A stretch of DNA of 64,000 bases from Patescibacteria group bacterium (GCA_004321885.1 SCQK01000013.1:32001-96000); one strand, 5' to 3'. Positions 13,836 to 53,346 are shown, numbered from the stretch's first letter. Numbers and translations are program-made. The notes: generated by a model not told the origin, from the letters alone.

Positions 13836-13837
13836 AT

Positions 13838-15126: not shown

Positions 15127-15149
15127 AATTATGGTAATGATACCATATC

Positions 15150-15202: not shown

Positions 15203-15203
15203 T

Positions 15204-17846
15204 ATGATTCCCCAAAACTTCACCAATAAAGCCCAGGAAGCCATCCAAAACGCGGCCCGCATCGCCTTTGAAAACAGCGGCCAGCAAGTAGAGCCGCCGC
15301 ATGTCTTTTTTTCGCTTTTAGAGGGCTCGGAAAGCATCATCAACTCGGTTTTTGCTAAAATCAACACCAACCTCATCGCCCTGAAAGCCGAAACCCAGTC
15401 GCTGATAGACCGCCTGCCCAAACAAACCTTAAATATTCTAAGCGGCGGCCTGGGGCAAATTTTGCTTGGCCAAGGGACGCTTTATTTATTTCAAACAGCC
15501 GGCGGCGAGGCCAAAAAAATGGGAGACGAGTATATTTCATTAGAGCATCTCTTGCTCGCCTTTACCACCACCAAAAATCCGGTCAGCGACCTCTTGGCGC
15601 GCCATGGAGTGAACTATGACAAAATTATCCAGGTGCTGGCGGGCATCCGCGGCTCGCAAAAAATAGACAGCCCTGAGCCAGAAAATAAATACAATGTTTT
15701 AGAAAAATACGGCAAAAATCTCACGGCCCTGGCGGCCAAAGAAAAACTTGACCCGGTCATCGGACGCGACATTGAAATCCGCCGCGTCATGCAGATACTT
15801 TCCCGCCGCACCAAAAACAACCCGGTGCTCATCGGCGAGCCGGGCACAGGCAAAACCGCCATTGTTGAAGGGTTGGCCCAACGCATTGTGAACGGCGACG
15901 TGCCCGAATCTTTGCACAATAAAGAAATCGTGTCCCTTGATATTGGCTCGCTTTTGGCCGGCACCAAATTCCGCGGCGAATTTGAAGAGCGCCTCAAGGC
16001 CGTACTTAAAGAAATAGACAGCTCGGCCGGCAAAATCATTCTATTTATTGATGAATTACACACCATCGTCGGCGCCGGCTCTTCCGAAGGCTCGGTGGAC
16101 GCCAGCAATATGTTAAAGCCCGCTTTGTCGCGCGGCACCCTGCACGCCATCGGCGCCACCACCCTCAAAGAATACCAAAAATACATAGAAAAAGACGCAG
16201 CCCTGGAGCGCCGCTTCCAGCCGGTGCTGGTATTGGAACCGTCGCGCGACGACGCCGTCGCGATACTTCGCGGCATCAAAGAAAAATACGAAGTACATCA
16301 CGGCGTGCGCATCACCGACGCCGCCATTATTTCGGCCGTAGACCTGTCCCAGCGCTACATCACCGACCGCTTTTTGCCCGACAAGGCCATAGACCTGATA
16401 GACGAAGCCACCTCGGCCCTGCGCATGCAGATAGACTCCATGCCCGACGAGCTGGATGCCATGAAGCGCAAAATGCTGAAACTGGAAATTGAAAAGCGCG
16501 CCCTGAAAAAAGAAACCGACGAAATTTCCAAAAAACGGCTCAATGATTTGGAAAAAGAACTGGCCAACCTGAAAGAAGAAAGCTCGGCTTTGGAAGGCCG
16601 CTGGAAAAACGAAAAAGAAATCATCGGCGTGATTCACGAAAGCAAAAAAGAAATTGAGCGCTTAAAATCACAAGCCGAAATAGAAGAGCGCAGGGGTGAT
16701 TTGCAAAAAGTCGCCGAAATTCGCTATGGCCGCATTCCCGAACTGGAAACCGCCATCAAAAACAGCGAGCGCAAGCTAGTGAAAATGCAAAAAGAGCGCG
16801 GCATCTTGAAAGAAGAAGTTACGGAACAAGACATCGCCGGCGCTGTCTCGCGCTGGACTGGCATTCCGGTTTCCAAAATGCTCATGACCGAAGCGGAAAA
16901 ATTGGTCAAAATGGAAAGTGAACTGGCCAAACGGGTGGTGGGACAGGAAGAAGCGGTGGAAACTATTTCCAACGCCATTCGCCGCTCGCGCGCCGGCATC
17001 AGCGAACCCAAGCGCCCCATCGGTTCGTTTATTTTTCTCGGCCCCACCGGCGTGGGCAAAACCGAATTGGCCAAGGCCCTGGCCGAATTTATGTTTGACA
17101 CCGATGAAGCCCTGGTGCGCGTGGATATGAGCGAATATATGGAAAAACACAGTGTGAGCAAAATTATCGGCTCGCCCCCGGGCTACGTGGGCTACGAAGA
17201 AGGCGGACAGCTGACCGAGGTCGTCCGCCGCCGCCCCTACGCCGTGGTCTTGTTTGACGAAATAGAAAAAGCCCACCCGGACGTATTTAATATTTTGTTG
17301 CAAATTTTGGATGACGGAAAAGTAACCGACTCCAAAGGCCGCGCCGTGAACTTCAAAAACACCATCATCATCATGACCAGCAATGTGGGCAGTGAAATGA
17401 TTTTAGACTTCAAGAAACGCGGGGAATTCGGCTTTGCCGAAGAAGCGAAGCCTGGTAAAAAAGACAAACAGGACGAAAAGAAAATTGAAGAAAAAGTGCT
17501 GGAAGCCCTACGCGGCCAATTCAAACCGGAATTTTTAAACCGCGTGGATGATATCGTGATTTTCCATTCCCTCGGGCAAAAACAAATCGCGAAAATAATT
17601 GAGATGCAATTGAATGAATTGCAGGAACGGCTAAGCGAACAACGTATCACTCTAAAAATAGATGAGGCGGCCAAAAAACATTTAGCGCAAAAGGGCTTTA
17701 ACCCCGACTATGGCGCCCGCCCCTTAAAGCGCGTGATTCAAACCGAACTGATGAATCTTTTATCTCTTCGCATTATTGAAGGAAAAATAAAAGACGGCCA
17801 AACCGTCAAAATCTCCGCCGACAAAGGCGCCATTGTCATCGCCTAA
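15204..17846 (+). CDS. clpB: ATP-dependent chaperone ClpB.
   Basis: Two AAA+ modules ([16 protein letters not shown]) with the coiled-coil M-domain. The likely start is MIPQNF at 15204; the ORF track starts earlier, at 15150. Confidence 0.95.
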
Positions 17847-39219: not shown

Positions 39220-39582
39220 CTACTTTACCAAGCGATTTTTGCCCAACAAATTTAAAATTTTAACAATCTCTTTCTTTAATTTTGGTATATCGTTCTCAAC
39301 GATTTTCCAAACCAGATTAATATCAACTCCAAAATATTCGTGAATGAGGACGTCCCGCGTACCGGCAATTTTTTTCCATTCTACCTGAGGATGCTTCTTT
39401 TTAAAACCAGCTGGCAAGCTTTTGCATGCTTCACCGATTATTTCCAAGCGGCGAATGATCGCGTCTTGAATTGTGGTTGAATCAAAAAAAAATTTTGGCG
39501 TTAATTTCGCCGCATTTTTTTCTATTTCTTCAATACTGGTTAAAATATATTCAAGAAAAAATTCAGGCTGTCTTTTTGCCAT
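39220..39582 (-). CDS. HepT-like (DUF86) toxin of a MntA/HepT nucleotidyltransferase TA pair.
   Basis: Rx4HxY motif (RDVLIHEY). Overlaps the upstream MntA gene. Confidence 0.8.
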   Translation of the reverse strand: MAKRQPEFFLEYILTSIEEIEKNAAKLTPKFFFDSTTIQDAIIRRLEIIGEACKSLPAGFKKKHPQVEWKKIAGTRDVLIHEYFGVDINLVWKIVENDIPKLKKEIVKILNLLGKNRLVK

Positions 39583-39877
39583 AAATTACCTTTTGCCCGC
39601 TCAAAATCGTCTTTCGCAATAACGGGTTGATGCCGCCGTATGAAAGCACGTCTACTCGCAAACCGAGTTTGTCTTCCAGCTCTAATTTTAAACCAACCAA
39701 ATCTAATAATGATTTATTTTTTTGTAATTTTACAAGGAGATCCAAGTCGCTTTTTTTGGTCTGTTCGCCTCGGGCGAAAGACCCAAAAATCGCGGCCTTT
39801 GTCACCCCGTTTTTTTTAAGAATCGGAAAAATTTTTTTGTTTAACGTTTTTAAGGTCATAGTTGAAATTATTACCAA
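39563..39877 (-). CDS. MntA-like minimal nucleotidyltransferase (antitoxin).
   Basis: GSFARGE...DLDLLV (GSx9-13DxD) motif. Confidence 0.8.
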   Translation of the reverse strand: MVIISTMTLKTLNKKIFPILKKNGVTKAAIFGSFARGEQTKKSDLDLLVKLQKNKSLLDLVGLKLELEDKLGLRVDVLSYGGINPLLRKTILSGQKVIYGKKTA

Positions 39878-39941
39878 TTAGACACCAACCCATTAGGAAA
39901 GCTAAATCCATTATTATTCTAACCCTTTTTTGCTTTTTTGT

Positions 39942-41000
39942 CTATTTTTTCTTCAACGTCGTTATCGGCCTACTTTGAGTAATGTATACTGTACCGCTTT
40001 CCATGGCCCATTCAATATCACAAGGGAAACCATAGTGTTGCTCAATTTTCTTGCACACCTTGGCCACTTCAATAATTTCTTTGCCGGTCAGCTTCTGCTT
40101 ACCCCCCTCTTTCTCACTCAACTCAATCCATTTGTTGGAGTCTCTCCCCTTTATAAGGGGAGAGTTAGTGAGGGGTAATTTCGCTTTCACCAACTTCTTC
40201 GTCTGTACTCCAACATTTATATCTACAATACTCATTTCGCTTTTGGAAACAATATAACTGTCGGGTGTAATCTGGCCGCTCACAATCGCTTCGCCCAATC
40301 CAAACCCGGCCTCAATAATCATCTGGTCGGGGTCTTCAGTAACCGGGTGCACAGTAAAGGCGATGCCCGAAATTTCCGACTGCACCATTTTCTGCACCAC
40401 TACCGCGACCGAAACATAATGGTCAATCAGTTTTTTTTCGTGACGATAAAAAATCGCGCGGGGGGTGAAAAGCGAAGACCAGCATTGCTTAACTTTTTCA
40501 ACAACGTTAACGCGCGTGGTGTTCAAATAGGTTTCCAGCTCCCCGGCCCAACTGGCCACGTCGCTGTCCTCGGCCGTAGCGCTGCTTCTCACCGCCACCA
40601 GGTTGTCATCCTGAACTTGTTTCAGGATCCCCGTTCGCCGTCTGTCATTCAGACCCCGCTTAGCGGGGGAGGAATCCCTCCCGCCCAACTCATCAAACGC
40701 CCCCAATATCTCATTCTCCAAATCTTTCGGCATGGGCGTGTCGTGTATCACATCGCGCAAAACATTACTCGCCTTGTCCACGCTGTTGGTGTCTTCGGGA
40801 TCCACGTCAGCCAATCGCGCCTCAATCTCTTCTTTCAATTTCGTTTCCTCAATAAATCTGTCAAACGCGCTCGCCAATACCACAAAACCCGGCGGCACAC
40901 GCAGTTTCGCTTTAGTCATCTCGCCAAGCGAAGCGCCCTTCCCGCCCGCGCTGGCCACATCTTTCTTGGAAATATCCTTAAAAAATTTTATGTGAGGCAT
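39942..41000 (-). CDS. Stand-alone PEP-synthase/PPDK N-terminal ATP-grasp (nucleotide-binding) domain protein. Carries two in-frame palindromic insertions.
   Basis: VASAGGKGASLGEM...VAVRSSATAED...CDIEWAMESGTVYITQSRP is collinear with the N-domain of the ppsA at 53413..56379 and stops at the domain boundary. Insertions sit at 40143-40177 (family 2) and 40607-40632 (family 3). Confidence 0.8.
   Translation of the reverse strand: MPHIKFFKDISKKDVASAGGKGASLGEMTKAKLRVPPGFVVLASAFDRFIEETKLKEEIEARLADVDPEDTNSVDKASNVLRDVIHDTPMPKDLENEILGAFDELGGRDSSPAKRGLNDRRRTGILKQVQDDNLVAVRSSATAEDSDVASWAGELETYLNTTRVNVVEKVKQCWSSLFTPRAIFYRHEKKLIDHYVSVAVVVQKMVQSEISGIAFTVHPVTEDPDQMIIEAGFGLGEAIVSGQITPDSYIVSKSEMSIVDINVGVQTKKLVKAKLPLTNSPLIKGRDSNKWIELSEKEGGKQKLTGKEIIEVAKVCKKIEQHYGFPCDIEWAMESGTVYITQSRPITTLKKK
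40143..40177. repeat. Family-2 palindromic repeat (TCTCCCCTTTATAAGGGGAGAGTTAGTGAGGGGT), in-frame in the ATP-grasp ORF.
   Basis: Shared with 54371-54409; a variant sits at 27169-27220; a related core lies at 34730-34765. Confidence 0.8.
40607..40632. repeat. Family-3 palindromic repeat (CATCCTGAACTTGTTTCAGGATCCCC), in-frame in the ATP-grasp ORF.
   Basis: Identical to 62591-62616 and near-identical to 63041-63066. Confidence 0.85.
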
Positions 41001-41036
41001 ATTTCAAAAGCAGTCGCTTTGGGCGACTGCCACGAA

Positions 41037-41459
41037 CTATTTAATATATTCACCGATGATCTTCATAAACTTTTTTATATCTCCACTTTCCGCTTTTAGC
41101 TCGGTCAAAAATCGTTTCATGTCAATGTCTTCGTACTTGTGCACTATCCTGTTGCGCAAACCGACTATCGGAGCCAGTTTTAGAGCAAACGCCATGGGCA
41201 AAATTTTATTCTGGCCAAGCGTGATAAATGTGCTTTGATAATCTTCGGGCGCCTGCAAATTTTTCTCGGCGATAATATGCGTGTTGATATCTACCATACA
41301 GTCCACAATGAGCTGAAACAAGCGCTCAATCGCGTGCAATTTCGTCTCATCCTGAATTAAATCAAAAACATCGTCTTCTAAAAGCGCGTCCAACTCTTTC
41401 TGATACCCGCCGATGTCGGTGAGTTTGTTGTAAATAAGCGTTTTGTTGGTCATACACAC
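41037..41459 (-). CDS. HepT-like (DUF86) toxin, second copy.
   Basis: RNRIVHKY (Rx4HxY). Confidence 0.75.
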   Translation of the reverse strand: MCMTNKTLIYNKLTDIGGYQKELDALLEDDVFDLIQDETKLHAIERLFQLIVDCMVDINTHIIAEKNLQAPEDYQSTFITLGQNKILPMAFALKLAPIVGLRNRIVHKYEDIDMKRFLTELKAESGDIKKFMKIIGEYIK

Positions 41460-41462
41460 AAT

Positions 41463-41864
41463 TTAAGCCAAAAATTTTTGAAGTTGTTTATGCCTTAATT
41501 CATAAAGCGGTTTCGCCTCAACATATCTCTTAAACGCGTACATGCGAAATTTGGCAAACTCGCCGACTTTATCCTCGTATAGAGGAACTCCGTCTCGCCC
41601 TATTTGCAGCATAAGTAACGGCGACGCTCCGCGCGCGTTCACCACTTCCACGTCGCCGCGGCCAAATATATGGCAAAAATTTTCCCGCAACCCGGCTTCT
41701 TCATAATAAGAAATTGGCCCTTTTGTTTTGACGGCAATATCAATGTCGCTGTATTTATGCGTTTTTCCGCGCGCGGCCGAACCAAATAATACGACGAAAT
41801 CAAGACCAGCTTGTTTAGCCGCCTTTTTTATCGCTGTCTTTGTTGTTGAATTTATGACTTTCAT
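41463..41864 (-). CDS. MntA-like nucleotidyltransferase antitoxin, second copy.
   Basis: GSAARGKTHKYSDIDIAV. Confidence 0.8.
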   Translation of the reverse strand: MKVINSTTKTAIKKAAKQAGLDFVVLFGSAARGKTHKYSDIDIAVKTKGPISYYEEAGLRENFCHIFGRGDVEVVNARGASPLLMLQIGRDGVPLYEDKVGEFAKFRMYAFKRYVEAKPLYELRHKQLQKFLA

Positions 41865-41908
41865 GATAAAAGTATAGCATTTTTGCAGTATTTTGCAAAT
41901 TTTTGTCT

Positions 41909-42229
41909 TTAATCAATTTTTCTCACAATTCCCTTCTCCGCGTCCACCTCCACCATATCGCCATTTTTAATCTTCCACAAAATTTCTTCCGAAAGACCGA
42001 CAATCGCCGGTTTGTTATTTTCGCGCGCCACAATAGCCGCGTGAGAAGTTACCCCGCCATGCACTGCCAAAATCGCCTTCACTTTTTTAGCCAGCGCCGC
42101 GTTTGGTTTGACTTGATTCAATAACACAATATTCTCTTCCGTGCAATGAGCAAATTGGTCAGTATGATTAATAATACAAACCAGCCCGCTCGCCTTGCCG
42201 GGACAAGCAGAAATTCCTTTGAATTGCAT
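41909..42229 (-). CDS. Stand-alone PEP-utilizing-enzyme mobile (phosphohistidine swivel) domain protein.
   Basis: ACPGKASGLVCII...HGGVTSHAAIVARENNKPAIVG...GDMVEVDAEKGIVRKID; 106 aa. Confidence 0.8.
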   Translation of the reverse strand: MQFKGISACPGKASGLVCIINHTDQFAHCTEENIVLLNQVKPNAALAKKVKAILAVHGGVTSHAAIVARENNKPAIVGLSEEILWKIKNGDMVEVDAEKGIVRKID

Positions 42230-42492
42230 AAATTATAAATAATGGCTTTGTTCTGCCATTATTTTACTCTTACTCTTGACAAAAGTCAAAAAATGTGCTA
42301 TATTGTTTTGTTGTGGTTTATTGGAAAATTGCGCTTTATTGCGCTATTTTCCGGCTATAACGTGAGTGTGTTGTTTTTTGAAAATTTGAGGTTTCTTTGG
42401 CCAGAAGTTGAATGCGTAATGCGAATATCTTTTGTTCGTAATGCGCAGTCAACTTCCACGCCCCACCGATGGGGCACACCAAGGAGAGGAAG

Positions 42493-43140
42493 ATGAAGAC
42501 CACGGTGCTGTTCACGAGGCACGAGGACCACAAAGACCAGGTCCTCCTGCCGGACGCGGTCGAGAGAGCGCGCATGCGCGGTCTGCGCCTGCGTGAGAAG
42601 GACTACAAGATCGACCGGGTCAAGGGCTCGCCCCTGCCCCGCGCCGATGCCACCGCCACCGAGATGATGACCGGCTACGGCCAGACCACGGACATCGAGC
42701 GCGAGGCGCGCCTCGGCGACTTCAAATCCGATCCAAGGACGCCGAAGGAGGCGGTGAAGGAGCTCAAGGCGAACGCGGTGGCCAAGCACGGGGATGACTC
42801 CGACTCCAACTTGGCCAAGGAGCTCATCAACACCCCCGCCCTGCACGACCTCCTCTTCGCCCGCGCGAAGGAAGGCGCCGAGGCCCTGCTGGAGATGGCC
42901 GCCGCCAACCCGGGCAAGACCATCCTGGCCGTGAGCCACGGCGTGGCCCGCATGGAGATCGTCCTGCGCTACCTGCGGGGCGTCCGCGACACCGCGCTCC
43001 TGGACATCGTCCCGGAGCTCATCGACCGCGGCGAGGTCATCAAGCTGACCTTCGAGGTCTCGGAAGAGTGGGACGACCTCGCCGAGACGCACCCGGCGCG
43101 GGCCGAGTTCGTCTCGGCCGAGCCCCTCCCGCTCCTCTAA
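42493..43140 (+). CDS. Histidine phosphatase superfamily (PGAM/SixA-like) protein on a GC-rich foreign cassette.
   Basis: RHE and SHG motifs (VLFTRHEDH, AVSHGVA). Local GC is about 65% against about 40% in the flanks. RBS AAGGAGAGG lies just upstream. Confidence 0.65.
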   Translation: MKTTVLFTRHEDHKDQVLLPDAVERARMRGLRLREKDYKIDRVKGSPLPRADATATEMMTGYGQTTDIEREARLGDFKSDPRTPKEAVKELKANAVAKHGDDSDSNLAKELINTPALHDLLFARAKEGAEALLEMAAANPGKTILAVSHGVARMEIVLRYLRGVRDTALLDIVPELIDRGEVIKLTFEVSEEWDDLAETHPARAEFVSAEPLPLL

Positions 43141-43261
43141 CCCCCCATCTCGCCCGCGTTCCGCGGGCAACTCCAAACACAACTCACTGACACGGCGGTA
43201 CGCATCGCGCGACCGCCCAACTCTCAATGCTTTTCAACGAAAAACATTGAGCGTTACAAAA

Positions 43262-43293
43262 AATCCTTCGCGTTTACGAAGGATTTTTTGTTT
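43262..43293 (+). terminator. Rho-independent terminator after the histidine phosphatase (TCCTTCG-CGTTTA-CGAAGGA plus a T-run).
   Basis: Read directly. Confidence 0.55.
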
Positions 43294-43319
43294 CTCAATT
43301 TTAATACCAGCGCGCTATT

Positions 43320-44828
43320 TCAAATTCTCCTCACCACCCCTTTATACCCATCCACCTCCAACCAATCCCCATCTTTCACCACCTCGCGCACAAACCTGGT
43401 TTGTATTACTCCCGGAATTTTGGCTTCCCGCGCAAGCGTGGCCGGGTGCGTCGTAATACCATGCCCGCCATCGCAAACCAAACCTGCCGCTTTCATAATA
43501 GCTGTGGAGAAACTGGGTACCACTTGAATACTGACGATAATATCTCCCTTCTGCACTTTATCGCATTCATCGGGATGCAAAATTACACGCGCTGGCCCCT
43601 TGGCGACTCCGGGCGAAACCGGCATACCGGTAAACTCTTTAGCGTTCTTATCTACTTTACAGAAAAGATTAAACAATCTTTCGGCCTGACTTCTCTCAAC
43701 TATCTTCATTGGCTGTCCGCGCCGACAATACCACAACATCAGTTCTATCCTTTCGTTAATATCAAAAGATAATTCTTTTCCTTTGATCAAAGCCGTTCTT
43801 ATCTCTTCTATTTTTAAGTGCCTGACCTGATTCAGACTCAAATAGAATCTGCGGCCAATCTCTTTCAAAACGCTATCAAAATAATACAAAGATTCGGAAA
43901 CGTAGCGCTTGCGCAATTCTTTCAAGTAAGCCACATGGCGCATGGAATTGAAAGAATCTTGTTCTTGCTTGCTGAAGTTCAATCTGGCCAAATATCTCTT
44001 TCTTTCGCTTTCATTTTTAGCCAAGTTACCGACCAATTTCTCATATTCCTTCCTCACATTGAGTATGAGATAGCCGGTCAAACGTTGAACTATCGATCTA
44101 AAATCCAAAACGGAGTCTTCGTAATCACGCGTTACCCAAAAATAATTTCTTTCATGCTTCCTTATAAGATTACTAAGTTTAGAATCTTTTTTAATGGCGT
44201 CTATATCTTTGGTTGTGACCAGAGAAACCCAATGTTTATCGGCTAAAATCCTTAACGCCAATTCAAACAACGCCTTCAATTCAACAGTCGCCACCATGGC
44301 GCTGGGTTCGCGCGTTAAAATGTCCAAAACTACCGCGGCCTTCCTTTTGTCCGCCACTTTGCCTTCCACCATACGTAGCAGGTCGGCGATATAATGGTCT
44401 TCCGTAATCCAAATCCATCCGTACCGAGCGTACACCTCTTTGTATTTTTTTTCATAATCAGCGAAAAATTCGTACAATGTCTGATTGCTTATTCTTTCTA
44501 AATTAGAATTGCCTGCTTTCTTGGCAAAAGCCACTAAACGCGCACCGTAGATATGCTGTTCTTTAATGAACTTGCCGACCAATTTTGAATCATAATGAAT
44601 TTTATCGGACATGTCGCGAGCAACCTCTTCGTAACCCTTCCTACCAATAAACATGTAGTGTACGTTATGCGTGCAAAAATAAAGTACCTCTCCGAGGGCA
44701 AAGCCGACGGCACTTTTCATCTCATTGCAGACAGCCTCCATTGAAAAATAATTAGGAAACGGACTGACGCGTTGGCGTTGAGACTTAAATACCCAGTGGT
44801 CGATATCCGTTGAAAATTTAACTGGCAT
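43320..44828 (-). CDS. Two-domain protein: about 400-aa N-domain of unknown function plus a C-terminal PEP-utilizers swivel domain (paralog 1 of 4).
   Basis: C-terminus: GMPVSPGVAKGPARVIL...DGGHGITTHPATLAREAKIPGV...GDWLEVDGYKGVVRRI. Confidence 0.7.
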   Translation of the reverse strand: MPVKFSTDIDHWVFKSQRQRVSPFPNYFSMEAVCNEMKSAVGFALGEVLYFCTHNVHYMFIGRKGYEEVARDMSDKIHYDSKLVGKFIKEQHIYGARLVAFAKKAGNSNLERISNQTLYEFFADYEKKYKEVYARYGWIWITEDHYIADLLRMVEGKVADKRKAAVVLDILTREPSAMVATVELKALFELALRILADKHWVSLVTTKDIDAIKKDSKLSNLIRKHERNYFWVTRDYEDSVLDFRSIVQRLTGYLILNVRKEYEKLVGNLAKNESERKRYLARLNFSKQEQDSFNSMRHVAYLKELRKRYVSESLYYFDSVLKEIGRRFYLSLNQVRHLKIEEIRTALIKGKELSFDINERIELMLWYCRRGQPMKIVERSQAERLFNLFCKVDKNAKEFTGMPVSPGVAKGPARVILHPDECDKVQKGDIIVSIQVVPSFSTAIMKAAGLVCDGGHGITTHPATLAREAKIPGVIQTRFVREVVKDGDWLEVDGYKGVVRRI

Positions 44829-44858
44829 AATTAACTGATAAAAATTTATTCAATTCTT

Positions 44859-46082
44859 TTAAATTTTTCTCACAATCCCTTTCTCCGCGTCCACCTCCAC
44901 CATATCGCCGTCTTTTAAAACCTTAGTCGCGATTTTCGTGCCGATAATACAAGGTATACCTAACTCACGGCTGACGATGGCAGCATGCGCGGTTAACCCT
45001 CCCTCGTCGGTCACGATAGCGGCCGCCTTTTTGACCGCCGTTATCAACGACGGCGTGGTCATGGATGAAACTAAAATATCACCCTTCTGCATCTTGACCT
45101 GATCTTCCCGCGTGATAACAATTTTGACCTTGCCGCGCACCTTTCCCTTGGATGCCACGAAGCCAATAATTTTATCCACCACCGCTGTTTTGTCTTCTTC
45201 AAAATAAAGCTTAAAATAATTCTGCGCCTTTTCGCCGCTTAAAATTTTTAATTTTCTCCGGCTGATCAGCAATATATAAAATTGTTGGCGGCGTTTCATT
45301 TCGCTTTCGGGCATTTTCTTGCCACCCAAATAATCGCGCAAGCTGACCGGATCGTACCAATCCAATTCAGCCAATTCTTTTTCGTTGTTGATGACCTTTC
45401 GCAAATGATCTAATAGCTGATCGTAAAGATAAGACGACACTCTTTCCCCCATTTCGTAAAAGTAAGTGAACCATGATAAAATTTCCGCAAGCTCTTTTTC
45501 TTTGGCGGTTAATTTTAGCCGTCGTGCAAGATCCTCTCTTTTTCTAATCAATCGCGGACTAGAACAATGCAATTGGTTTAATAGCCCGACAACCGCTTTC
45601 GGCACTGATAAAGTTGATAAGACATCGTCCAGCTCGCGCGCCGATACTTTCGCCGCCAGTAATTTTTTCAGCCGCTGTGCAACAGACTGCTCACCCCAGT
45701 AGCTATAGACAATAGCGCCACGCCCATAAGCGTGATATTTCATGAACAAACTGATGTAACTCCTCAAATCTTTGCGGGTCAAATTTTTATTCTCGTACTT
45801 TCTGCCCCAGTTATAACCTTGGATTAGCAACTTAACTATAATGTCACCCAAACGAGAAATATTTTTCCCTTTAAATTCTCGCAGAATAATTTTCTGCTGT
45901 CTTTTTTTGTCCGCGGGGTCAAAGTATAACGAGGTAACTCTGCCGCGGCCGACAATCGGACTTCTGGCTATTTTCGCCCGCCCAAATTTACCAATGCTCT
46001 GCGCATAAGCAATGGTGCGAAATCCGCGATCAAGCAAAGTATTTTCACGTGTTAATTGTTTGACGTATTTGACTTTGGACAT
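44859..46082 (-). CDS. Unknown N-domain plus C-terminal PEP-utilizers swivel domain (paralog 2).
   Basis: C-terminus: KGKVRGKVKIV...DEGGLTAHAAIVSRELGIPCIIG...GDMVEVDAEKGIVRKI. Confidence 0.7.
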   Translation of the reverse strand: MSKVKYVKQLTRENTLLDRGFRTIAYAQSIGKFGRAKIARSPIVGRGRVTSLYFDPADKKRQQKIILREFKGKNISRLGDIIVKLLIQGYNWGRKYENKNLTRKDLRSYISLFMKYHAYGRGAIVYSYWGEQSVAQRLKKLLAAKVSARELDDVLSTLSVPKAVVGLLNQLHCSSPRLIRKREDLARRLKLTAKEKELAEILSWFTYFYEMGERVSSYLYDQLLDHLRKVINNEKELAELDWYDPVSLRDYLGGKKMPESEMKRRQQFYILLISRRKLKILSGEKAQNYFKLYFEEDKTAVVDKIIGFVASKGKVRGKVKIVITREDQVKMQKGDILVSSMTTPSLITAVKKAAAIVTDEGGLTAHAAIVSRELGIPCIIGTKIATKVLKDGDMVEVDAEKGIVRKI

Positions 46083-46239
46083 AAATTAAAGCTTCCCCAT
46101 AACCCCCTTTAATATAGAACCCCGAAATTTGACAAATAACGTGCACATGTTATACTGATTATGGAATTGATACCGCTTCAAATAGTCCCGTTTATCGGGG
46201 CGTCCCGCAAGGGTAAGGAGCGGTATTTTTGTTTTACTC

Positions 46240-46869
46240 CTATTTCGGCCATCTTTGCACCCAAATCTCTTTGTCTGCCACGTATTTATAATAATTCGTC
46301 CAATCCTTTTTATTTTGAACTTTTCTGCTGACAACGCCGGTGATGTAATCAGCTACCTGCAGCAAATTATTTGATTTTGAACGCTGTTGTTTTAATTTTT
46401 TTATAACTTTCTTCCCGTTCGTATTTAACCGAACGCGCAAATATTTGGCAAGACGGCTGCGAAAATCCGGCGAACCTGACTTATCAAGTATTACTGTGGC
46501 GTTATTCAAATGCGGAAGCGCGTTGTTAAAAACCATCTGGCAGGCGTATTTGTAAAACGATTCTTTGGTGATAAAACCTGGCCCCCACAATTTATTTGGG
46601 TCTTTGTCTATCACGACTGCGAAGTATATAAAGCGATACGGCTGGATGGCCGATAAAAATCTTTCTTTTATCTTATCCGAATTAAAAGAAAAATGAAATT
46701 CAAAATCGGACGGCAAATCAAGCTCTTTTCGCAATAAATTAATCCGTTGGTCGCAAGATAGGGCGTCTTCATTGTCATCAAAAATAACCAAAGAAATTAT
46801 AAAATATCTGCTGGAACCGGATTCTGTTTTACGGCCGGTATCGCCGGCTTCATCTATAAAGACGAGCAT
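46240..46869 (-). CDS. DUF3800-like protein.
   Basis: N-terminal FIDEAGDTG hallmark (an IDESG-type start); 209 aa. Embedded in the paralog operon. Confidence 0.5.
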   Translation of the reverse strand: MLVFIDEAGDTGRKTESGSSRYFIISLVIFDDNEDALSCDQRINLLRKELDLPSDFEFHFSFNSDKIKERFLSAIQPYRFIYFAVVIDKDPNKLWGPGFITKESFYKYACQMVFNNALPHLNNATVILDKSGSPDFRSRLAKYLRVRLNTNGKKVIKKLKQQRSKSNNLLQVADYITGVVSRKVQNKKDWTNYYKYVADKEIWVQRWPK

Positions 46870-46879
46870 AACTGTTAAT

Positions 46880-48361
46880 TCAAATTTTCTTCACAATCCC
46901 CTTTGTCGCATCCACTTCCACCATGTCGCCGTCTCTGAAAACCTTAGTGGCGATTTTCGTGCCAATCACGCAGGGAATACCGAGTTCGCGCGAGACGATA
47001 GCCGCATGGCAGACAATGCCGCCCATATCAGTAACTATCGCCGACGCCTTTTTCATGGCCGCCACGATTTCCGGTATGGTCATTTCCGAAACCAACACAT
47101 TTCCACTTACCATTTTTTTCATATCCTCTATGGTATTTACAATCGTTACTTTCCCTTTGGCCGCGCCCGGAACCGCGGTTTGCCCCCGCAGTTCTTGAAC
47201 TGATAAATCCACTTCTTCCTCACGAGCCATATTCATTTTTGACATTACGTATCTCGCTTCTTCGCCAACAATAAACTTGGATCCATTGGCGTCCACATAT
47301 AGTAAACTATATTTCCAACGTTCATTTAATTCATCCGCGTCGCACTGCCCGCTTCTAATCGCAGAAGGAACTTCTTGTGGCAAAAAATATCGCGCTTGAC
47401 GAATTGAAATAAGCAATCTTTTTGCTACTTCCCGCAGTATTTTATCAAGCGCATAAAATCCTAAAAATTGGTGCTCTTTGCTCCATGCCTTTTGATAAAC
47501 AAGGTCTTTGGTAACGCGAAATAAATGCTTGTGTTTTTCATCAATTTTTAAATTATCAAACCAGGCGTTTTGTTTTTTTTCAGCTTCAAAAAACTGATTT
47601 TTCTGACGCAAAATTTCTTGCTCAATATCGGTCCCAGCTTCTATAATCTCCTGAATATGCTTTACCACATCCTTCTCTGTCCAAGTCGGCCCTTCACAGG
47701 CAAAGGGCAAAAAACAATACTTCCGCGCATGCGCCGCAATTTTTTCCTCCCCAACGGATAATTGAATTTTGCCTTCCACAACTTCCTTCGCCAGCTCATA
47801 AAGTTCCAAATGTTCCTGTGTACCCAAAGCCGGCTTTGTCAGCGTGAGTAAATCAGCCAAAACAAGAACGGCATCTATATCAGGATTAAACTTTTTTAAA
47901 TAGTTCAATAAATATATTCCTAATTGTTCAAACGGAATTTCCAAAAGCCAACTCGGAACACGATATAAGTGTAATTCCGTCTGTAACGGCAACAGTTGTT
48001 CGTAAATTCGCGCGAGTTCTTCGTTGGATAACTTTGATAAATCACTCTCAATAATTTTCCAGGCATAATTTCTAAGCTGCGGTAAAATTTTATCTGATTT
48101 TACATGCATATCATCAATGAGCCGGGGATTTTCCACAATTGCTTCTAAAGTTTTTTTACCGGCCACTATCCATTCATTGCGAATATAGAATAACTTTGTC
48201 GCGCCGTTTTCATACAAAGGAAGGCTGTGTGCCACATCGGCAAGCCCCAGCTTGCTCAATTCGCTTGTCATGGCGCGAAAAGGCGGCTCCAATGTAATGG
48301 GAGGATACTGATACAACTTCTCAATCATTATCCATTCTTTTCTTAACAATTCTTCATTCAT
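46880..48361 (-). CDS. Unknown N-domain plus C-terminal PEP-utilizers swivel domain (paralog 3).
   Basis: C-terminus: AVPGAAKGKVTIV...DMGGIVCHAAIVSRELGIPCVIG...GDMVEVDATKGIVKKI. Confidence 0.7.
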   Translation of the reverse strand: MNEELLRKEWIMIEKLYQYPPITLEPPFRAMTSELSKLGLADVAHSLPLYENGATKLFYIRNEWIVAGKKTLEAIVENPRLIDDMHVKSDKILPQLRNYAWKIIESDLSKLSNEELARIYEQLLPLQTELHLYRVPSWLLEIPFEQLGIYLLNYLKKFNPDIDAVLVLADLLTLTKPALGTQEHLELYELAKEVVEGKIQLSVGEEKIAAHARKYCFLPFACEGPTWTEKDVVKHIQEIIEAGTDIEQEILRQKNQFFEAEKKQNAWFDNLKIDEKHKHLFRVTKDLVYQKAWSKEHQFLGFYALDKILREVAKRLLISIRQARYFLPQEVPSAIRSGQCDADELNERWKYSLLYVDANGSKFIVGEEARYVMSKMNMAREEEVDLSVQELRGQTAVPGAAKGKVTIVNTIEDMKKMVSGNVLVSEMTIPEIVAAMKKASAIVTDMGGIVCHAAIVSRELGIPCVIGTKIATKVFRDGDMVEVDATKGIVKKI

Positions 48362-49836
48362 ATTTTTCTCACAACCCCACTTGTCGCGTCAACCTTCACC
48401 ATATCGCCGTCTTTGAGTACGGAAGTGATTTTTTTCACGCCCACCACGCAGGGAATTTTAAATTCGCGCGCCACAATGGCCGCATGGCAAGTGATGCCGC
48501 CGTCCTCCGTCACGATAGCCGAGGCGCGTTTCATAGCCGGCAACATCGCCGGATAAGTCGTGAGCGCCAACATAATATCTCCTTTTTCCACCTTATCCGC
48601 GTCTGTTAACGATAGAACAACTTTTACTTTGCCTGAAACAAAACCCGGATACGCGGTGGCGCCCTTAAATCCGTCTTCAACATTTAATTTTATTTCTTCA
48701 ATATCCAAGCCGGCTATAATCGCGTCGGCCTCTTTGCCGTAATAATACTTTGTTCCGCTTTCAGTCGCTTCAATCACGCAATGCTTAATTCTCTCATTTA
48801 TTAAATCAATGTCCAATTTGTCACGCAATAGAGCGTTTTCCATTTCGTCCGTCAAAAAATGATTCGCTTGTTTATGCGATATATTCAATCGCTTGGCAAT
48901 TTCTTTGGTGAGCATGTCCAAAACATAGTGCCCATGCCAAATACAATATTTTCTGAGATCCTTAAGCCAAATAATCTCGCGGGCGATGGCGAACAATCGC
49001 GCGAGCTGCGGGGGCAAGTTGATTTCGGAAATTACTTTATTTTGTTCCGCGATGAGTTTCTCGTAGCGTTCTTTTTCTTCTTTGAGCATTTGGTCCGGGT
49101 CAGTTACGCGAGGCAGGGCTTCCTTAACCTGCTCTTCATAATATTTCAAATCATAAGCCGGCCCGATATAGCCGTATGGCGTCCAGCGCCATTTTTGCCA
49201 ATGCTTTGTTATTAATTCTTTGTACTGGATTCCCGCTTTCGCGGGAATGACAACGGCCTTAAGCAACTCCAAAAAATCCAATTGCTCCAACTGGACAAAA
49301 TTCTGTTTAGCCGGAGTGGTAAGCAGAACAAAATATTCTATTGTTTTTACCGGATCATCTATGCCTAAACTTTTTAAATGTTCTCCTAATTTTTGCTTTA
49401 AATACTCCGAAAAAATCATGCCGTCGCTGTCCACAAACCAAGTGGTGGCGATTGATGGAAGATGACCTTGCTCGGTAAGCCATAAAAGCGTTTTGTAGTA
49501 ATCAAAAAGCTCGGCATTGTTTAGCGCGCCAAAATCTTTTCCCACCAAACTTTGAGCGTAATTAAAATAATCCCAATTTAATTTTTCGGTTCGCGCATGC
49601 AATTCCTCTGCCCACTGCGGCTCGGTAATAATTTTTTCCGCAATCCATTTCACCGTCGTTTCTATTACTTCAACCGGCACATACGCCGTATCCCTGTCGT
49701 TTCTATAATCTTGATACCAAACAGTAAATAATTGTTTGCCATTCTTTTTTGGAATATGCGCAAAAATCCCTTGGGGGTAATAGCCCAGCATGTTAAAATT
49801 CACGTCGCGGATATCAAAATTTATTCGCCATTTCAT
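48358..49836 (-). CDS. Unknown N-domain plus C-terminal PEP-utilizers swivel domain (paralog 4).
   Basis: C-terminus: AYPGFVSGKVKVV...EDGGITCHAAIVAREFKIPCVVG...GDMVKVDATSGVVRKI. Confidence 0.7.
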   Translation of the reverse strand: MKWRINFDIRDVNFNMLGYYPQGIFAHIPKKNGKQLFTVWYQDYRNDRDTAYVPVEVIETTVKWIAEKIITEPQWAEELHARTEKLNWDYFNYAQSLVGKDFGALNNAELFDYYKTLLWLTEQGHLPSIATTWFVDSDGMIFSEYLKQKLGEHLKSLGIDDPVKTIEYFVLLTTPAKQNFVQLEQLDFLELLKAVVIPAKAGIQYKELITKHWQKWRWTPYGYIGPAYDLKYYEEQVKEALPRVTDPDQMLKEEKERYEKLIAEQNKVISEINLPPQLARLFAIAREIIWLKDLRKYCIWHGHYVLDMLTKEIAKRLNISHKQANHFLTDEMENALLRDKLDIDLINERIKHCVIEATESGTKYYYGKEADAIIAGLDIEEIKLNVEDGFKGATAYPGFVSGKVKVVLSLTDADKVEKGDIMLALTTYPAMLPAMKRASAIVTEDGGITCHAAIVAREFKIPCVVGVKKITSVLKDGDMVKVDATSGVVRKI

Positions 49837-49838
49837 AT

Positions 49839-50882
49839 TTATCCGAAGTAGTTTTTCACCGCGAATTCAAATTGCTGGACAAATAATTCCTTAAAGTAGC
49901 GCAAACTATTTTGTTCGTAAAATAAAAGCAACGCCTTCTTGTATTCGGCGCTATCAACGCTTCTAAACGACAAAGGACACCAGTCATGCGCCAAGAGAAT
50001 CGCATTGCCCAAAATTCTGCCTGTTCTTTTATTTCCATCCACGAACGGCTGAATATATGAAATCATCGCCGCCGCGATTATGGCCTTGATTATCGGTTGC
50101 TCCTCTGTATTTACCGCGGAAATCATTTTTTCCATCGCTTCTTTTATTTGGAATTGGTTGTCTATCGGCTTATAATTTGTGCCGACAATACCCACTACAA
50201 TCTTCCTGTAATCATCCGTCACGCCCAAATCTTTTATCAACAAAGAATGCAGGGCGCGTATCAGCGCGGCGGTCGGTTTCTTGAATTTATTTTTATTTTT
50301 CAAAACAAAATCAAGCGCGTATTTATGATTCAATATCATCGTCGCCTCCGCTTTAGTGTGCCCTTTCGCCTCTTTCATTTCCTTTAACAATACTTCCGTA
50401 TCCAATAACGAATAAGTATTACCTTCAAGTTCAGATGATTTCCAGCTCAATTCAATCAAAAGTCGCTCTAATTCTTTTTGAGCGACATCGACCGCCATTT
50501 TGTCTGTTTTTTGTTGATACGCCTTGTTGCGCTTTTCTAAATCTTTTAATTCTTCCTTGTTAAACAAGCCGGATAAATGGTCAAAAATTTCCCAGTCAAA
50601 TCTGTATTTTATTTTTCTTTCATCCACCGGAACCGCAAAATAATCCGCGGCATTAACATAACGCAGAAGCGGAGTTTTAATTTTTGACGAATATGTGACA
50701 CTGCGAGCCTTGCCTCTCTTTTCTATCTGTCCGATCGAGAGTAAAATTTCCAATTCACGCAGGATTGTCGGTTTTGACAATCTGTCAAATTTACCCGCTA
50801 ATCCTTTAATAAGTTCGGCCGCTGTTACCTGTTCATTAGCCTGTACAAATTCCAAAATCGCTTTTTGACGTTTTGTAAGCAT
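49839..50882 (-). CDS. Fic/Doc-family protein with an N-terminal wHTH. The Fic motif has Gln in place of the catalytic His.
   Basis: IQPFVDGNKRTGRILGN matches HPFx(D/E)GN(G/K)R except for H to Q. First gene of the paralog operon. Confidence 0.7.
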   Translation of the reverse strand: MLTKRQKAILEFVQANEQVTAAELIKGLAGKFDRLSKPTILRELEILLSIGQIEKRGKARSVTYSSKIKTPLLRYVNAADYFAVPVDERKIKYRFDWEIFDHLSGLFNKEELKDLEKRNKAYQQKTDKMAVDVAQKELERLLIELSWKSSELEGNTYSLLDTEVLLKEMKEAKGHTKAEATMILNHKYALDFVLKNKNKFKKPTAALIRALHSLLIKDLGVTDDYRKIVVGIVGTNYKPIDNQFQIKEAMEKMISAVNTEEQPIIKAIIAAAMISYIQPFVDGNKRTGRILGNAILLAHDWCPLSFRSVDSAEYKKALLLFYEQNSLRYFKELFVQQFEFAVKNYFG

Positions 50883-51004
50883 ATATTATAGGCAGAGCAT
50901 ATAATTTTATCGGCCTCGCAAACCCGAATAGAATCGGGTTTGTCTCGGCCTTAATAAAATTATTGTCTCATTTTTATAGTTTAATTGTATCATAATGATA
51001 CAAT

Positions 51005-52186
51005 TCAAGCAATCACTCCCCCGCCCAAACATTCACCTTTAAGATAAAATACCGCGAACTGACCCGGGGTGACGGCGCGTTGGGGGTGAGTGAAAGTAAC
51101 TAAAGGGAGGGAAACAGTGCATCTCTGCAAAGGTTGACGGTGACGCAGGCGCACCTGGCATTTTAGCGGGAAATTGGGTGTGTTTCCACTTATCCAATTT
51201 ACGTCTTTGACCCTTGCTTCCATACTGTACAGCATATCGCTTTTCTCGTCGCCGACAATCAGTTCGTTCTTTTTTATATTCTTACCGACAACAAAGAGAG
51301 GCAACGCGCTGGATTCCCCCGTACTTAGTCGGGGGAATGACAAACTGATACGTTGGCCGATGGTGTAAAACGCCAGGCCATCGTGCTGGCCCACGACTTT
51401 ACCCCTCTCTCGCCACCGCCGCGAGGCGGGGCCCCGCCGTGGCGGTGGCTCTCCCCTTGTAAAGGGGAGAGAGAGCACTATGTTCCCGGGTTTGAATTTT
51501 ATCTTTTTCATCAAAAATTCTTTCATCGGCACTTCGCCGATGAAACAAATGCCCATGCTTTCTTCTTTTTCCGCCGTGGGCAAGCCGAATTTTTTTGCCA
51601 GGGCGCGCACCTGTGGTTTGGCATACTCACCGATGGGAAACAAAACGTGGCGCAGTTGTGCTTGAGATAATTGATTCAAAAAATATGTTTGGTCTTTATT
51701 GAGATCTTTTGACTGCAAGAGGTGCAGAACCCCACCCCCCTTTCGTTCCCCCTTTATTAAGGGAGGAAGAAACGCGTAGTGTCCAGTCGCTAATTTATCA
51801 AACCCTAACGCACGGGCTTTATCCAGCCAGGCGCCAAACTTGATGAATTTATTGCACAAAACATCCGGATTGGGCGTGCGGCCGGCCTTGTACTCGCTAT
51901 ACATGTAATCCAAAACATCGCGCTTGTATTTGCGCGTAAAATCCAGCTTCAAAAGTTTAATGCCCAGTTTGGCGGCCACGCGCAAGGCGTCGCGATAATC
52001 GCCGGTCCAACAGCGCGATCCCACCCCCCCTTCGCCCCCCCCTCTGGCATGAGGGGATATTTTCTCATCATAGTTCACCATGAACGCGCCGCTTACGTTA
52101 TATCCTTGCTTAACCAAAAGAGCGGCGGCAACGGACGAATCCACGCCGCCGGACATGGCGACTAAAATTTTTTGCTTTTTTTTCAT
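51005..52186 (-). CDS. mnmA: tRNA-specific 2-thiouridylase MnmA with several in-frame palindromic insertions.
   Basis: ILVAMSGGVDSSVAA PP-loop. Gly/Pro/Arg-rich insertions at 51310-51345 (family 1), about 51410-51478, about 51740-51770 and about 52020-52060. Confidence 0.85.
   Translation of the reverse strand: MKKKQKILVAMSGGVDSSVAAALLVKQGYNVSGAFMVNYDEKISPHARGGGEGGVGSRCWTGDYRDALRVAAKLGIKLLKLDFTRKYKRDVLDYMYSEYKAGRTPNPDVLCNKFIKFGAWLDKARALGFDKLATGHYAFLPPLIKGERKGGGVLHLLQSKDLNKDQTYFLNQLSQAQLRHVLFPIGEYAKPQVRALAKKFGLPTAEKEESMGICFIGEVPMKEFLMKKIKFKPGNIVLSLPFTRGEPPPRRGPASRRWRERGKVVGQHDGLAFYTIGQRISLSFPRLSTGESSALPLFVVGKNIKKNELIVGDEKSDMLYSMEARVKDVNWISGNTPNFPLKCQVRLRHRQPLQRCTVSLPLVTFTHPQRAVTPGQFAVFYLKGECLGGGVIA
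51310..51345. repeat. Family-1 palindromic repeat, copy D, in-frame inside mnmA (encodes LSFPRLSTGESS).
   Basis: The reverse complement equals copy C. Confidence 0.85.
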
Positions 52187-52253
52187 AACAATATAATACC
52201 ACACAAAACAAAAACTGCCAGCCTTGCGGCCGGCAGTTTCTTGTTTGCAGTAA

Positions 52254-52565
52254 TTACCTATCGCGCCTGGCCCGCAGACATTCTCTGCAGTAAACCGGCT
52301 TGTCGCCGGTGGGCTGGAAGGGCAACTCGGTGATCTTGCCTCCGCACTGGGCGCAGGTCAAGTCCACCTGGTACATCTGGCGCGGAGCGCCAAACGAGCG
52401 TCCGCCGCCGCTCGGGCGGGTCTGGCGGTACGCGCGATTGCATTCATTGCAATACACGGGTCTGTCGCCGGACGGCTGGAAGGGCAGCTGTGAAATATGG
52501 GTCCCGCATTTGCCGCAGGAAAGGTCCACATCGTACATCTGCCTAGTGCTGTTGTCAAAAGCCAT
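52254..52565 (-). CDS. Small protein with two tandem zinc-ribbon repeats (CGKCGTHISQLPFQPSGDRPVYCNEC and CAQCGGKITELPFQPTGDKPVYCREC).
   Basis: Internal duplication read directly; paralogous to the motif in 19719..20228. Confidence 0.5.
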   Translation of the reverse strand: MAFDNSTRQMYDVDLSCGKCGTHISQLPFQPSGDRPVYCNECNRAYRQTRPSGGGRSFGAPRQMYQVDLTCAQCGGKITELPFQPTGDKPVYCRECLRARRDR

Positions 52566-52984: not shown

Positions 52985-53245
52985 ATGGAGGTAATTTTAT
53001 ATTATATTTACAGTAAAAAACTGAATAAATACTACTTAGGAAAAACCAATGATTTGGAGCGACGTTTTATAGAGCATAATAACGGTGAAGAAATTTTTAC
53101 CAGAACTGGTATTCCATGGAAATTAGTTGGATTTATTAAAGCCAGCGCGAAGATAATTAGTAAATTAGAGTATAAACTAAAAAAAGCAAAAAATCCAAAA
53201 TACGTTTATTGGTATTTCAATCAACACGGAACTGTATTGGAATAA
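52985..53245 (+). CDS. Small GIY-YIG nuclease-domain protein (YhbQ/UPF0213-like).
   Basis: ILYYIYSKK...YYLGKTNDLERRFIEHNNG covers the GIY, YIG, Arg, Glu and Asn positions; 86 aa. Confidence 0.6.
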   Translation: MEVILYYIYSKKLNKYYLGKTNDLERRFIEHNNGEEIFTRTGIPWKLVGFIKASAKIISKLEYKLKKAKNPKYVYWYFNQHGTVLE

Positions 53246-53250
53246 TGAGC

Positions 53251-53324
53251 GGGTCGGTAGTTCAACTGGTTAGAGCACTGCCCTGTCACGGCAGAAGTTG
53301 CGGGTTCGAGTCCCGTCCGACCCG
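53251..53324 (+). tRNA. tRNA-Asp (anticodon GTC).
   Basis: Hand-folded cloverleaf. Acceptor GGGTCGG/CCGACCC, U8, D-arm, anticodon stem CTGCC/GGCAG with loop CTGTCAC, T-loop TTCGAGT, discriminator G. No encoded CCA. Confidence 0.85.
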
Positions 53325-53346
53325 CTTATTATTCCATCAAAGCAAG

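Follow-up and report, generated by a model that had tools for sequence, protein, structure and literature searches.

A swivel-domain paralog array in a Patescibacteria genome as a probable split dikinase with several acceptor modules

Four neighbouring genes in a Patescibacteria group bacterium encode proteins that end in the same phosphohistidine swivel domain and differ strongly in their N-terminal domains, which raises the question of what such a set of paralogs does, and with which partners. The genes lie in a stretch of 64,000 nucleotides (GCA_004321885.1, SCQK01000013.1:32001-96000), hereafter the window, and all array coordinates count from its first letter. An initial annotation had placed them in an operon at 43320-50882, together with genes for a Fic-like and a DUF3800 protein, and had read the whole as an accessory or defence island of undescribed architecture. 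Our analysis indicates that the locus is probably a split water dikinase of the rifampin phosphotransferase (RPH) type with several acceptor modules, and that the functional unit reaches about 3.4 kb past 43320, to 39942, where it includes an ATP-grasp gene that had been overlooked. The paralogs are numbered P1 to P4 in transcription order on the minus strand; H denotes a protein with a substrate domain plus swivel, and I an ATP-grasp protein.

49839-50882, minus strand: Fic-like protein of 347 amino acids (PF02661, E 2.8e-16), heading the co-directional cluster
48358-49836, minus strand: P1, H-type, 492 amino acids, RPH-type substrate domain followed by a C-terminal swivel with His451
46880-48361, minus strand: P2, H-type, 493 amino acids (PF00391, E 1.3e-22)
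46240-46869, minus strand: DUF3800 protein of 209 amino acids (PF12686, E 7e-14), followed by a 157-nucleotide gap
44859-46082, minus strand: P3, short H-type, 407 amino acids, reduced RPH-type domain plus swivel with His366
43320-44828, minus strand: P4, H-type, 502 amino acids (PF00391, E 2.8e-12)
41909-42229, minus strand: stand-alone swivel of 106 amino acids (PF00391, E 2.1e-16)
39942-41000, minus strand: stand-alone ATP-grasp protein, I-type, 352 amino acids (PF01326, E 2.8e-94)

The six co-directional open reading frames (ORFs) were confirmed with matches to PF02661, PF00391, and PF12686, and they are tightly packed (in the order Fic-like, P1, P2, DUF3800, P3, P4: a spacer of 2 nucleotides, a 4-nucleotide overlap, and spacers of 10, 157, and 30 nucleotides). 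Each of the four paralogs ends in the swivel domain PF00391 (E 2.8e-12 to 2.1e-26), and their alignment contained, as had been described, the swivel His, the GG lead-in, and the nearly identical tail GDMVEVDA.KG.V.KI. The last 100 amino acids showed pairwise identities of 38–67%. The N-domains had been described as mutually divergent and without a recognizable motif; the divergence is real, since those of P1, P2, and P4 are only 22–28% identical and that of P3 could not be aligned pairwise, but the domains are homologous to one another and of a known fold. BLASTP linked the N-domain of P1 to those of P2 (6e-32) and P4 (2e-11), and the profile–profile alignment of P3 with P1 spanned 390 columns. 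For P1, which is 100% identical to NCBI protein P0001, a phmmer search against the Protein Data Bank (PDB) sequences gave a match running beyond the swivel into rifampin phosphotransferase (RPH residues 700-863), and RPH-like NCBIfam models covered P1 residues 279-490. A profile of the P1 family, built from an alignment of 60 sequences, aligned with RPH residues 526-877 (5hv2 numbering) at E 2.8e-30, and the AlphaFold2 model of P1 reached a predicted local distance difference test score of 93.2 and a predicted template modelling score of 0.90. RPH was the sole solved structure that matched the whole H protein, and the N-domain is a substrate domain of the RPH rifampin-binding type, not a novel fold.

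The catalytic residues of RPH can be followed into this family. The phosphate-binding network of the RPH-Lm phosphotransfer site is made up of Arg666, Glu667, and Lys670, and the second phosphotransfer is lost in the Arg666Ala or Glu667Ala mutant (PMC4844700). The P1 residues that the profile aligns with these three are K292, D293, and K296, within the motif K292-D293-L-R295-K296 (KDLRK). The corresponding motif is KELRK in P4 and KAWSK, a partial match, in P2; the P3 segment, YEMGER, does not match. On these motifs, P1 and P4 look fully competent, and P2 and P3 may have a different chemistry. When 184 H-type proteins from 54 loci were aligned to one profile, which is approximate for very divergent N-domains, most shared the consensus [K/Q/R]-[D/E]-x-R-K, with residue counts of [K 51, Q 39, R 33]-[D 86, E 19]-x-[R 136]-[K 115]; about 30 of the 184 were gapped at these columns. 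The swivel His was retained in all 184. It was also retained in P4, in which the swivel motif is atypical (GGHGITTHPATLARE), and in the lone 106-amino-acid swivel (GGVTSHAAIVARE), comparable forms of which occur in loci L038, L009, and L056. The lone swivel may be a phospho-carrier, a decoy, or a remnant; the specific candidate of a 3′ remnant of a broken paralog was rejected, as HMM searches in the six frames of 41801-43400 detected no remnant of an N-domain. The earlier proposal that the paralogs look like diversified phosphotransferase modules working by a swivel-His mechanism is supported.

A phosphotransferase of this type needs a charging domain, and the candidate is the ATP-grasp gene that begins about 2.3 kb beyond the end of the six-gene cluster. 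The residues matching RPH Lys22, Arg117, Thr136, and Glu297 are conserved in its product, which aligns end to end with the 387-amino-acid stand-alone PDB chain 9goj. It is 50–72% identical to array-adjacent stand-alone ATP-grasps in 14 other loci, against only 34% identity to the phosphoenolpyruvate (PEP) synthase PpsA of the window itself. Its match to NCBIfam PRK06464 (E 1.4e-100) was far better than that to the pyruvate phosphate dikinase (PPDK) model TIGR01828 (E 2.6e-17); the ATP-grasp is therefore PEP-synthase-like and not PPDK-like, which favours the water-dikinase direction. We also noted a basic insertion at residues ~105–134 of the window protein, which has no counterpart in the PEP synthase 9dae and sits in the gap between two aligned RPH segments. 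The stand-alone homologues at other loci are shorter (304–341 amino acids).

The arrangement is not confined to this genome. A search with P1 gave 2,318 matches among 8,000 scored candidates; among the matches listed, identities were 34–61% over most or all of the length, and the named records were nearly all Patescibacteria. The N-domain alone corresponded to 1,067 clusters (50% identity) at E <= 1e-3 and 373 at E <= 1e-10. We then considered gene neighbourhoods together with a scan of one genome per species, in which genes were labelled with an ORF and phmmer pipeline and counted within 10-kb flanks, which under-count genes. Across the 54 loci with H-type genes, the median number of H genes was 3 and the maximum was 11; at least two were present in 35 loci and at least four in 24. 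The gene neighbourhood is conserved in other genomes. A stand-alone ATP-grasp gene lay within 10 kb in 16 of the 54, and never more than one. Genes for HAD, HD, or His_Phos proteins were found in 17 loci and frequently share a few bases with an H gene. According to the record titles, from which the host taxonomy was taken, the hosts include many Candidate Phyla Radiation (CPR) lineages and DPANN (Diapherotrites, Parvarchaeota, Aenigmarchaeota, Nanoarchaeota, plus Nanohaloarchaeota) archaea (Micrarchaeota, Woesearchaeota, and Nanoarchaeota); some titles name Gammaproteobacteria, Methanosarcinales, Planctomycetota, or Aminicenantes, and the family may not be exclusive to CPR and DPANN.

Clustering the N-domains of the 184 proteins gave 72 clusters with a threshold of >=100 bits and 118 with one of >=150 bits. 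Paralogs of one array almost always came from different clusters, and several clusters (c0, c2, and c4) were common to CPR and DPANN loci. P1, P3, and P4 have orthologues elsewhere, with N-domain identities of 52%, 50%, and 38.5%, and their order is the same in L003; the 38.5% refers to the L003 orthologue of P4, the cluster of which (c9) includes L003 and L012. P2 formed a singleton cluster (c52) with no close orthologue among the 54 loci. Judged by these clusters, the paralogy is ancient and not a local diversification, and the window array looks as if it had been reduced from a longer ancestral array.

In some genomes, the modules are fused. In a Woesearchaeota metagenome-assembled genome (JAFGGS010000004.1), locus L035 contains an uninterrupted ORF of 3,761 amino acids (6332-17617, plus strand) with one PPDK_N ATP-grasp domain followed by eight units of N-domain plus swivel. 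Among the database proteins, P0244 combines one PPDK_N with four swivels, and P0274 and P0329 each combine PPDK_N with two; an ATP-grasp domain is absent from P0242 and P0245, which have three swivel units. That a single ATP-grasp may work with several acceptor modules is supported most strongly, among the computational evidence, by these fusions. A partial ORF of at least 2,937 amino acids in L052 (1-8814) also contains swivel domains.

We consider it probable that the locus encodes an RPH-type water dikinase that is split between genes and equipped with several acceptor modules. According to this proposal, ATP would be bound by the stand-alone ATP-grasp protein, acting as a charging subunit shared by P1–P4. 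It would pyrophosphorylate the swivel His of each paralog and leave the β-phosphate there, with the release of AMP and Pi, and the charged swivel would swing back to its own RPH-type N-domain to pass the phosphate to a bound small molecule. Each paralog, coming from a different anciently diverged subfamily, would probably have its own substrate, and the adjacent histidine phosphatase (HAD or HD proteins elsewhere) would reverse or process the products or reset the phospho-His. From the gene linkage and the fusions, we infer that one ATP-grasp may serve all four paralogs; which way the reaction runs and what the phosphatase does are likewise inferred. Several observations weigh against this proposal. 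The basic and acidic site residues are absent from P3 and partly from P2, and hence the four paralogs need not share one type of kinase activity. The swivel motif GGxT[C/S]H is closer to that of PEP synthase than to that of RPH or of HpeH, a two-component dikinase protein compared below, both of which have Met two residues before the His. In 38 of the 54 loci, no ATP-grasp gene was found in the 10-kb flanks, for which distance or contig ends are possible reasons. The known two-component dikinases belong to aromatic-catabolism operons with one H per I, which is not so in the window, and encoding a kinase together with a phosphatase could imply futile-cycle control or some other logic.

A wider scheme, which we offer only tentatively, is that CPR and DPANN organisms use such loci as a hub with spokes, in which one ATP-grasp would charge many interchangeable modules in place of missing conventional kinases. 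Scavenged metabolites (nucleosides, vitamins, sugars, and, via Pta, carboxylates) would be captured or activated, phosphatases, including the antisense histidine phosphatase with its high GC content at third codon positions (GC3), would provide the off-switch, and modules would be gained, lost, and exchanged between two domains of life. Its mention of carboxylates relates to further genes at other loci. PTA_PTB genes (PF01515, E ~1e-90) lie inside or beside arrays, adjacent to the ATP-grasp gene, in five mostly DPANN-labelled loci (L018 1917-2891, L020 17890-18864, L026 1126-2133, L029 8862-9866, and L031 3-650), and acyltransferases with double hexapeptide repeats were found in four (L020 2356-3450, L029 5696-6793, L030 15090-16223, and L026 17296-18441). 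Both often overlap an H or ATP-grasp gene, and they offer a lead, namely that some arrays may perform acyl-phosphate or acyl-transfer chemistry. TrmB-family regulators occur near arrays in four loci. In the window, we found no gene for Pta, a hexapeptide acyltransferase, or TrmB.

Other explanations of the paralogs themselves share much of this evidence. The H proteins could be a battery of RPH-like phosphotransferases that inactivate antibiotics or other xenobiotics, detoxifying hydroxylated hydrophobic compounds that diffuse into a host-attached cell. This would fit RPH as the only solved structure matching the whole protein, the rifamycins and phenolics on which characterized relatives act, the rph-like genes counted in a CPR resistance survey (PMC8651080), and the great diversity of the N-domains. 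We nevertheless regard it as unlikely, because clusters that CPR bacteria share with DPANN archaea are awkward for rifamycins and similar antibacterial drugs as the main targets, because the gene order shared with L003 and the housekeeping synteny block are conserved, and because the embedded phosphatase, PTA_PTB, and acyltransferase genes point to product metabolism and not to dead-end inactivation. Moreover, no paralog reached the NCBIfam cut-off for RPH (best score, 74.9 bits against 999). The chemistry could also run in the opposite sense. Few routes to ATP are open to CPR and DPANN organisms, which live by fermentation, and phosphorylated or acyl-phosphate metabolites might charge the swivel His, from which the ATP-grasp would remake ATP from AMP, as PPDK does in anaerobes; alternatively, carboxylates might be converted to acyl phosphates and then to acyl-CoA by Pta-like enzymes. 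The PTA_PTB and acyltransferase genes near arrays are consistent with this, as is the finding that HpeH alone catalyses phosphotransfer between substrates (PMC12167813), which makes the second half-reaction reversible. However, the PEP-synthase-like ATP-grasp indicates the water-dikinase direction, which is essentially irreversible, the window contains no Pta gene, and no RPH-family enzyme is known to use carboxylates, and we consider such harvesting of phosphoryl groups quite improbable.

Still less probable is a relay or regulatory function, in which the H proteins would be sensors in a phospho-relay and the lone swivel a carrier, like HPr in the phosphotransferase system. Lone swivels do recur, the multi-unit fusions recall multiphosphoryl-transfer proteins, and the window phosphatase resembles the phospho-histidine phosphatase SixA; but the match to the NCBIfam SixA model was weak (E 0.006) and far below the cut-off, a Pfam scan found no DNA-binding or output domain on P1–P4, and most N-domains keep the RPH-type site residues, which argues for catalysis on a bound ligand. 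The idea that Fic, DUF3800, and the swivel paralogs cooperate in a defence or accessory island did not hold up and now seems very improbable. It draws on matches to PADLOC models by the Fic-like protein (SoFic and PDC-S04, E ~1e-19), the DUF3800 protein (PDC-M04A, 3.8e-9, 34 bits), and MntA (PDC-S09), on the two MntA/HepT pairs in the locus, and on the Bro-N and AAA_14/DUF4143 genes in the L085 array. Against it, P1–P4, the ATP-grasp, the lone swivel, and the phosphatase had no match in PADLOC-DB 2.0, and the array is syntenic across divergent genomes and bordered by AlaRS, MnmA, and other core genes. DUF3800 was found in 1 of the 54 loci, that of the window, and is probably a lineage-specific insertion into the array and not a component. 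The Fic-like protein reads QPFVDGNKRTGR, with His replaced by Gln, as the initial annotation had noted, and GNG by GNK, so that it departs from the canonical HxFx(D/E)GNGRxxR. This Gln variant is restricted to close relatives (the window, L001, and L085) and is absent from most arrays; L034 has a different, canonical Fic near its array. Weak Penicillinase_R and FUR matches at residues 2-70 suggest a possible N-terminal winged-helix region, and the protein is possibly a local regulator, a lineage-specific companion and not a core part. That the paralogs are decaying fragments of pps or PPDK genes would explain the separate ATP-grasp and swivel genes and the database names "PEP synthase" and "PEP-utilizing enzyme", but we reject this explanation: the ORFs are intact, with full-length orthologues at 40–60% identity in many genomes, the N-domains are of the RPH type and not the PEP-binding barrel PF02896, the catalytic residues are conserved, and a complete PpsA is encoded separately at 53413-56379.

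The split dikinase proposed here would be accompanied by a phosphatase, and both the phosphatase and the ATP-grasp gene are found among smaller features downstream of P4.

43256-43291, no strand: hairpin with a perfect 15-bp stem (inverted repeat I4, 100% complementary) flanked by runs of A and T
42469-43140, plus strand: His_Phos_1 phosphatase (PF00300, E 6.7e-8)
41463-41864, minus strand: MntA (NCBIfam MntA, E 3.9e-23)
41037-41459, minus strand: HepT (PF01934, E 3.3e-24)
39220-39877, minus strand: second MntA/HepT pair (PF18765, E 4.6e-18; PF01934, E 7.1e-27)

The phosphatase gene lies on the strand opposite to the array, between P4 and the swivel and ATP-grasp genes, and the hairpin that separates it from the convergent P4 gene resembles a bidirectional terminator. 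Translation probably starts at ATG 42493, which is preceded by AGGAG, and the protein contains the catalytic motifs RHE and SHG. Its position and orientation are repeated in L004, L054, L079, L085, and L086 (counterparts: L004 13031-13654, L005 13247-13894, L054 12328-12987, L079 11553-12263, L085 7654-8310, and L086 10001-10630). BLASTP found no match (E <= 1e-3) between the window protein and the counterparts compared, and these proteins are strongly diverged. The window gene is also a sharp GC island (GC 0.68; GC3 0.95 against 0.42–0.66 in 39 other long ORFs), and the counterparts in six other loci have GC3 values of 0.71–0.87, against 0.25–0.58 for five of them and 0.70 for the ATP-grasp gene of L005. 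Recent transfer from a high-GC organism was considered and rejected. The 22 homologues found come from metagenome contigs or one Magasanikbacteria record, which makes a recent high-GC donor unlikely, and an equal GC3 excess in seven positional counterparts from different genomes contradicts it as well. Around the gene, a search for mobile-element boundaries gave only repeats at chance level and one terminator-like hairpin. The GC3 excess could reflect codon-level expression control or an antisense interplay with the operon transcript; the antisense (operon) strand of the gene folds at z = -2.6 relative to 20 shuffles, which is weak evidence. A family of ~310 amino acids without a Pfam match also recurs inside arrays (L007 13362-14321, L036 8814-9731, L046 10869-11825, and L047 7823-8767), with an "RH.." motif recalling histidine phosphatases; if these proteins are phosphatases, our survey under-counted them.

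One MntA/HepT pair (41037-41864) separates the swivel gene from the ATP-grasp gene, and the second follows the ATP-grasp gene. Both toxin-antitoxin pairs are inserts and not components. Where the window ATP-grasp is flanked by these pairs, the L085 array instead has Bro-N and AAA_14/DUF4143 genes (8725-10068 and 11539-12384). Such variation of the inserts between genomes is as expected of selfish elements landing in a long operon, and small selfish genes seem to use the arrays as landing sites. The window flanks consist of housekeeping genes (GtrA, AlaRS, MnmA, a zf_Tbcl_2 protein, tRNA-Asp, PpsA, and LigA), and the synteny block of AlaRS, GtrA, MnmA, and zf_Tbcl_2 is common to the window and L086. 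The locus therefore resembles a conserved operon of the chromosome in which small selfish inserts accumulate. A scan of 39800-52400 gave 34 promoter-like sites (shuffle mean, 21.4) and 22 terminator-like sites (15.7) and, despite these excesses, did not resolve the operon structure; an RNA family search of the window found only tRNA-Asp. Among the flanking genes, a 103-amino-acid protein with two treble-clef zinc fingers (PF23477; 52254-52565, minus strand) adjoins MnmA, and in L086 a member of this family neighbours the ATP-grasp gene. A small GIY-YIG ORF (52985-53325, plus strand) lies directly upstream of tRNA-Asp. The full PpsA (53413-56379, minus strand; 988 amino acids) contains PPDK_N, the swivel, and PEP-utilizers_C all within residues 15-789, followed by a C-terminal extension of ~190 amino acids with a hydrophobic, membrane-anchor-like segment (…IIKIAAATKLLLIFGVVGLLSTLGGYA…) and a further domain, which is unusual for PpsA.

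CPR and DPANN genomes are about 1 Mb in size, and some loci spend 10–20 kb on array genes despite this. If one ATP-grasp does drive many modules, phosphoryl groups would be distributed in a modular manner not described before, the trapping or activation of host-derived metabolites by these symbionts could be accounted for, and the arrays would offer a large untapped set of small-molecule kinases for biocatalysis. In the literature searched, we found no description of the arrays in CPR or DPANN organisms, only automated labels. A DPANN study labels such genes as phenylphosphate synthase and takes them as a sign of aromatic degradation (PMC8091004), and the CPR survey mentioned above counts them as rph and thus as antibiotic resistance. 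Our result corrects these labels, as well as that of PEP synthase.

Several known systems share parts of this architecture. PEP synthase and PPDK have homologous ATP-grasp and swivel domains, the best sequence match of each being the PEP synthase 8a8e, and the array proteins have a PEP synthase-like swivel motif, GGxT(C/S)HAAIV. However, PEP synthase and PPDK carry PF02896 C-terminal to the swivel, whereas P1–P4 lack PF02896 and have their substrate domain before the swivel; in the window, PF02896 was found only in PpsA. The prodigiosin ligases PigC, RedH, and HapC belong to the RPH-like family and, like the paralogs, combine ATP-grasp and swivel chemistry on a small molecule. Their NCBIfam matches extend back to residues 236-271 in P3 and P4, but these ligases are single chains of ~880 amino acids that activate an aldehyde for condensation, and the paralog scores are far below their cut-offs. 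RPH-Lm (5FBS, 5FBT, 5FBU, and 5HV1) has the same substrate-domain and swivel fold as the paralogs and the same ATP-grasp residues, and its Arg666-Glu667-x-x-Lys670 site is kept as K-D/E-x-x-K in P1 and P4. In contrast to the window, with its separate ATP-grasp gene, RPH runs in one chain from the ATP-grasp through the rifampin-binding domain to the swivel. It is 18–20% identical to the paralogs, the best score quoted above being that for NF041857, and the match of the paralogs to the NCBIfam PRK08296 models is confined to the swivel.

The closest counterparts are the two-component small-molecule dikinases PpsAB of Thauera aromatica, CreHI of Corynebacterium glutamicum, and HpeHI of Rhodococcus rhodochrous; in the last of these, most of HpeH resembles nothing but RPH, and the ATP-grasp, HpeI, stands alone (PMC12167813). 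As in the window, an RPH-type substrate domain with a C-terminal His swivel is combined with a separate ATP-grasp of ~40 kDa, and the features of the class found in the window are the H architecture, the swivel His (T/S-x-x-G-G-x-x-x-H), and the linked ATP-grasp gene. The architecture, initially thought to be undescribed, thus belongs to a class that is already known. The differences lie in the proteins and in their setting. The window H proteins are shorter (407–502 amino acids against ~71 kDa for HpeH), and the residue two positions before the swivel His is Thr in array proteins and Met in HpeH and RPH. In the window, no aromatic-catabolism genes are nearby; the genes around the array encode a phosphatase, Fic, toxin-antitoxin pairs, and housekeeping functions. 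Unlike in PpsAB, CreHI, and HpeHI, phosphatase genes are embedded in the arrays, the hosts of which are, by record title, mostly CPR or DPANN. Finally, whereas the known systems have one H per I, the window has four and a lone swivel, and other loci have up to 11 H genes or eight fused units. The enzyme class itself is known, and it is this one-to-many arrangement, with its large arrays and megaprotein fusions, embedded phosphatases, and CPR/DPANN distribution, that appears to be new.

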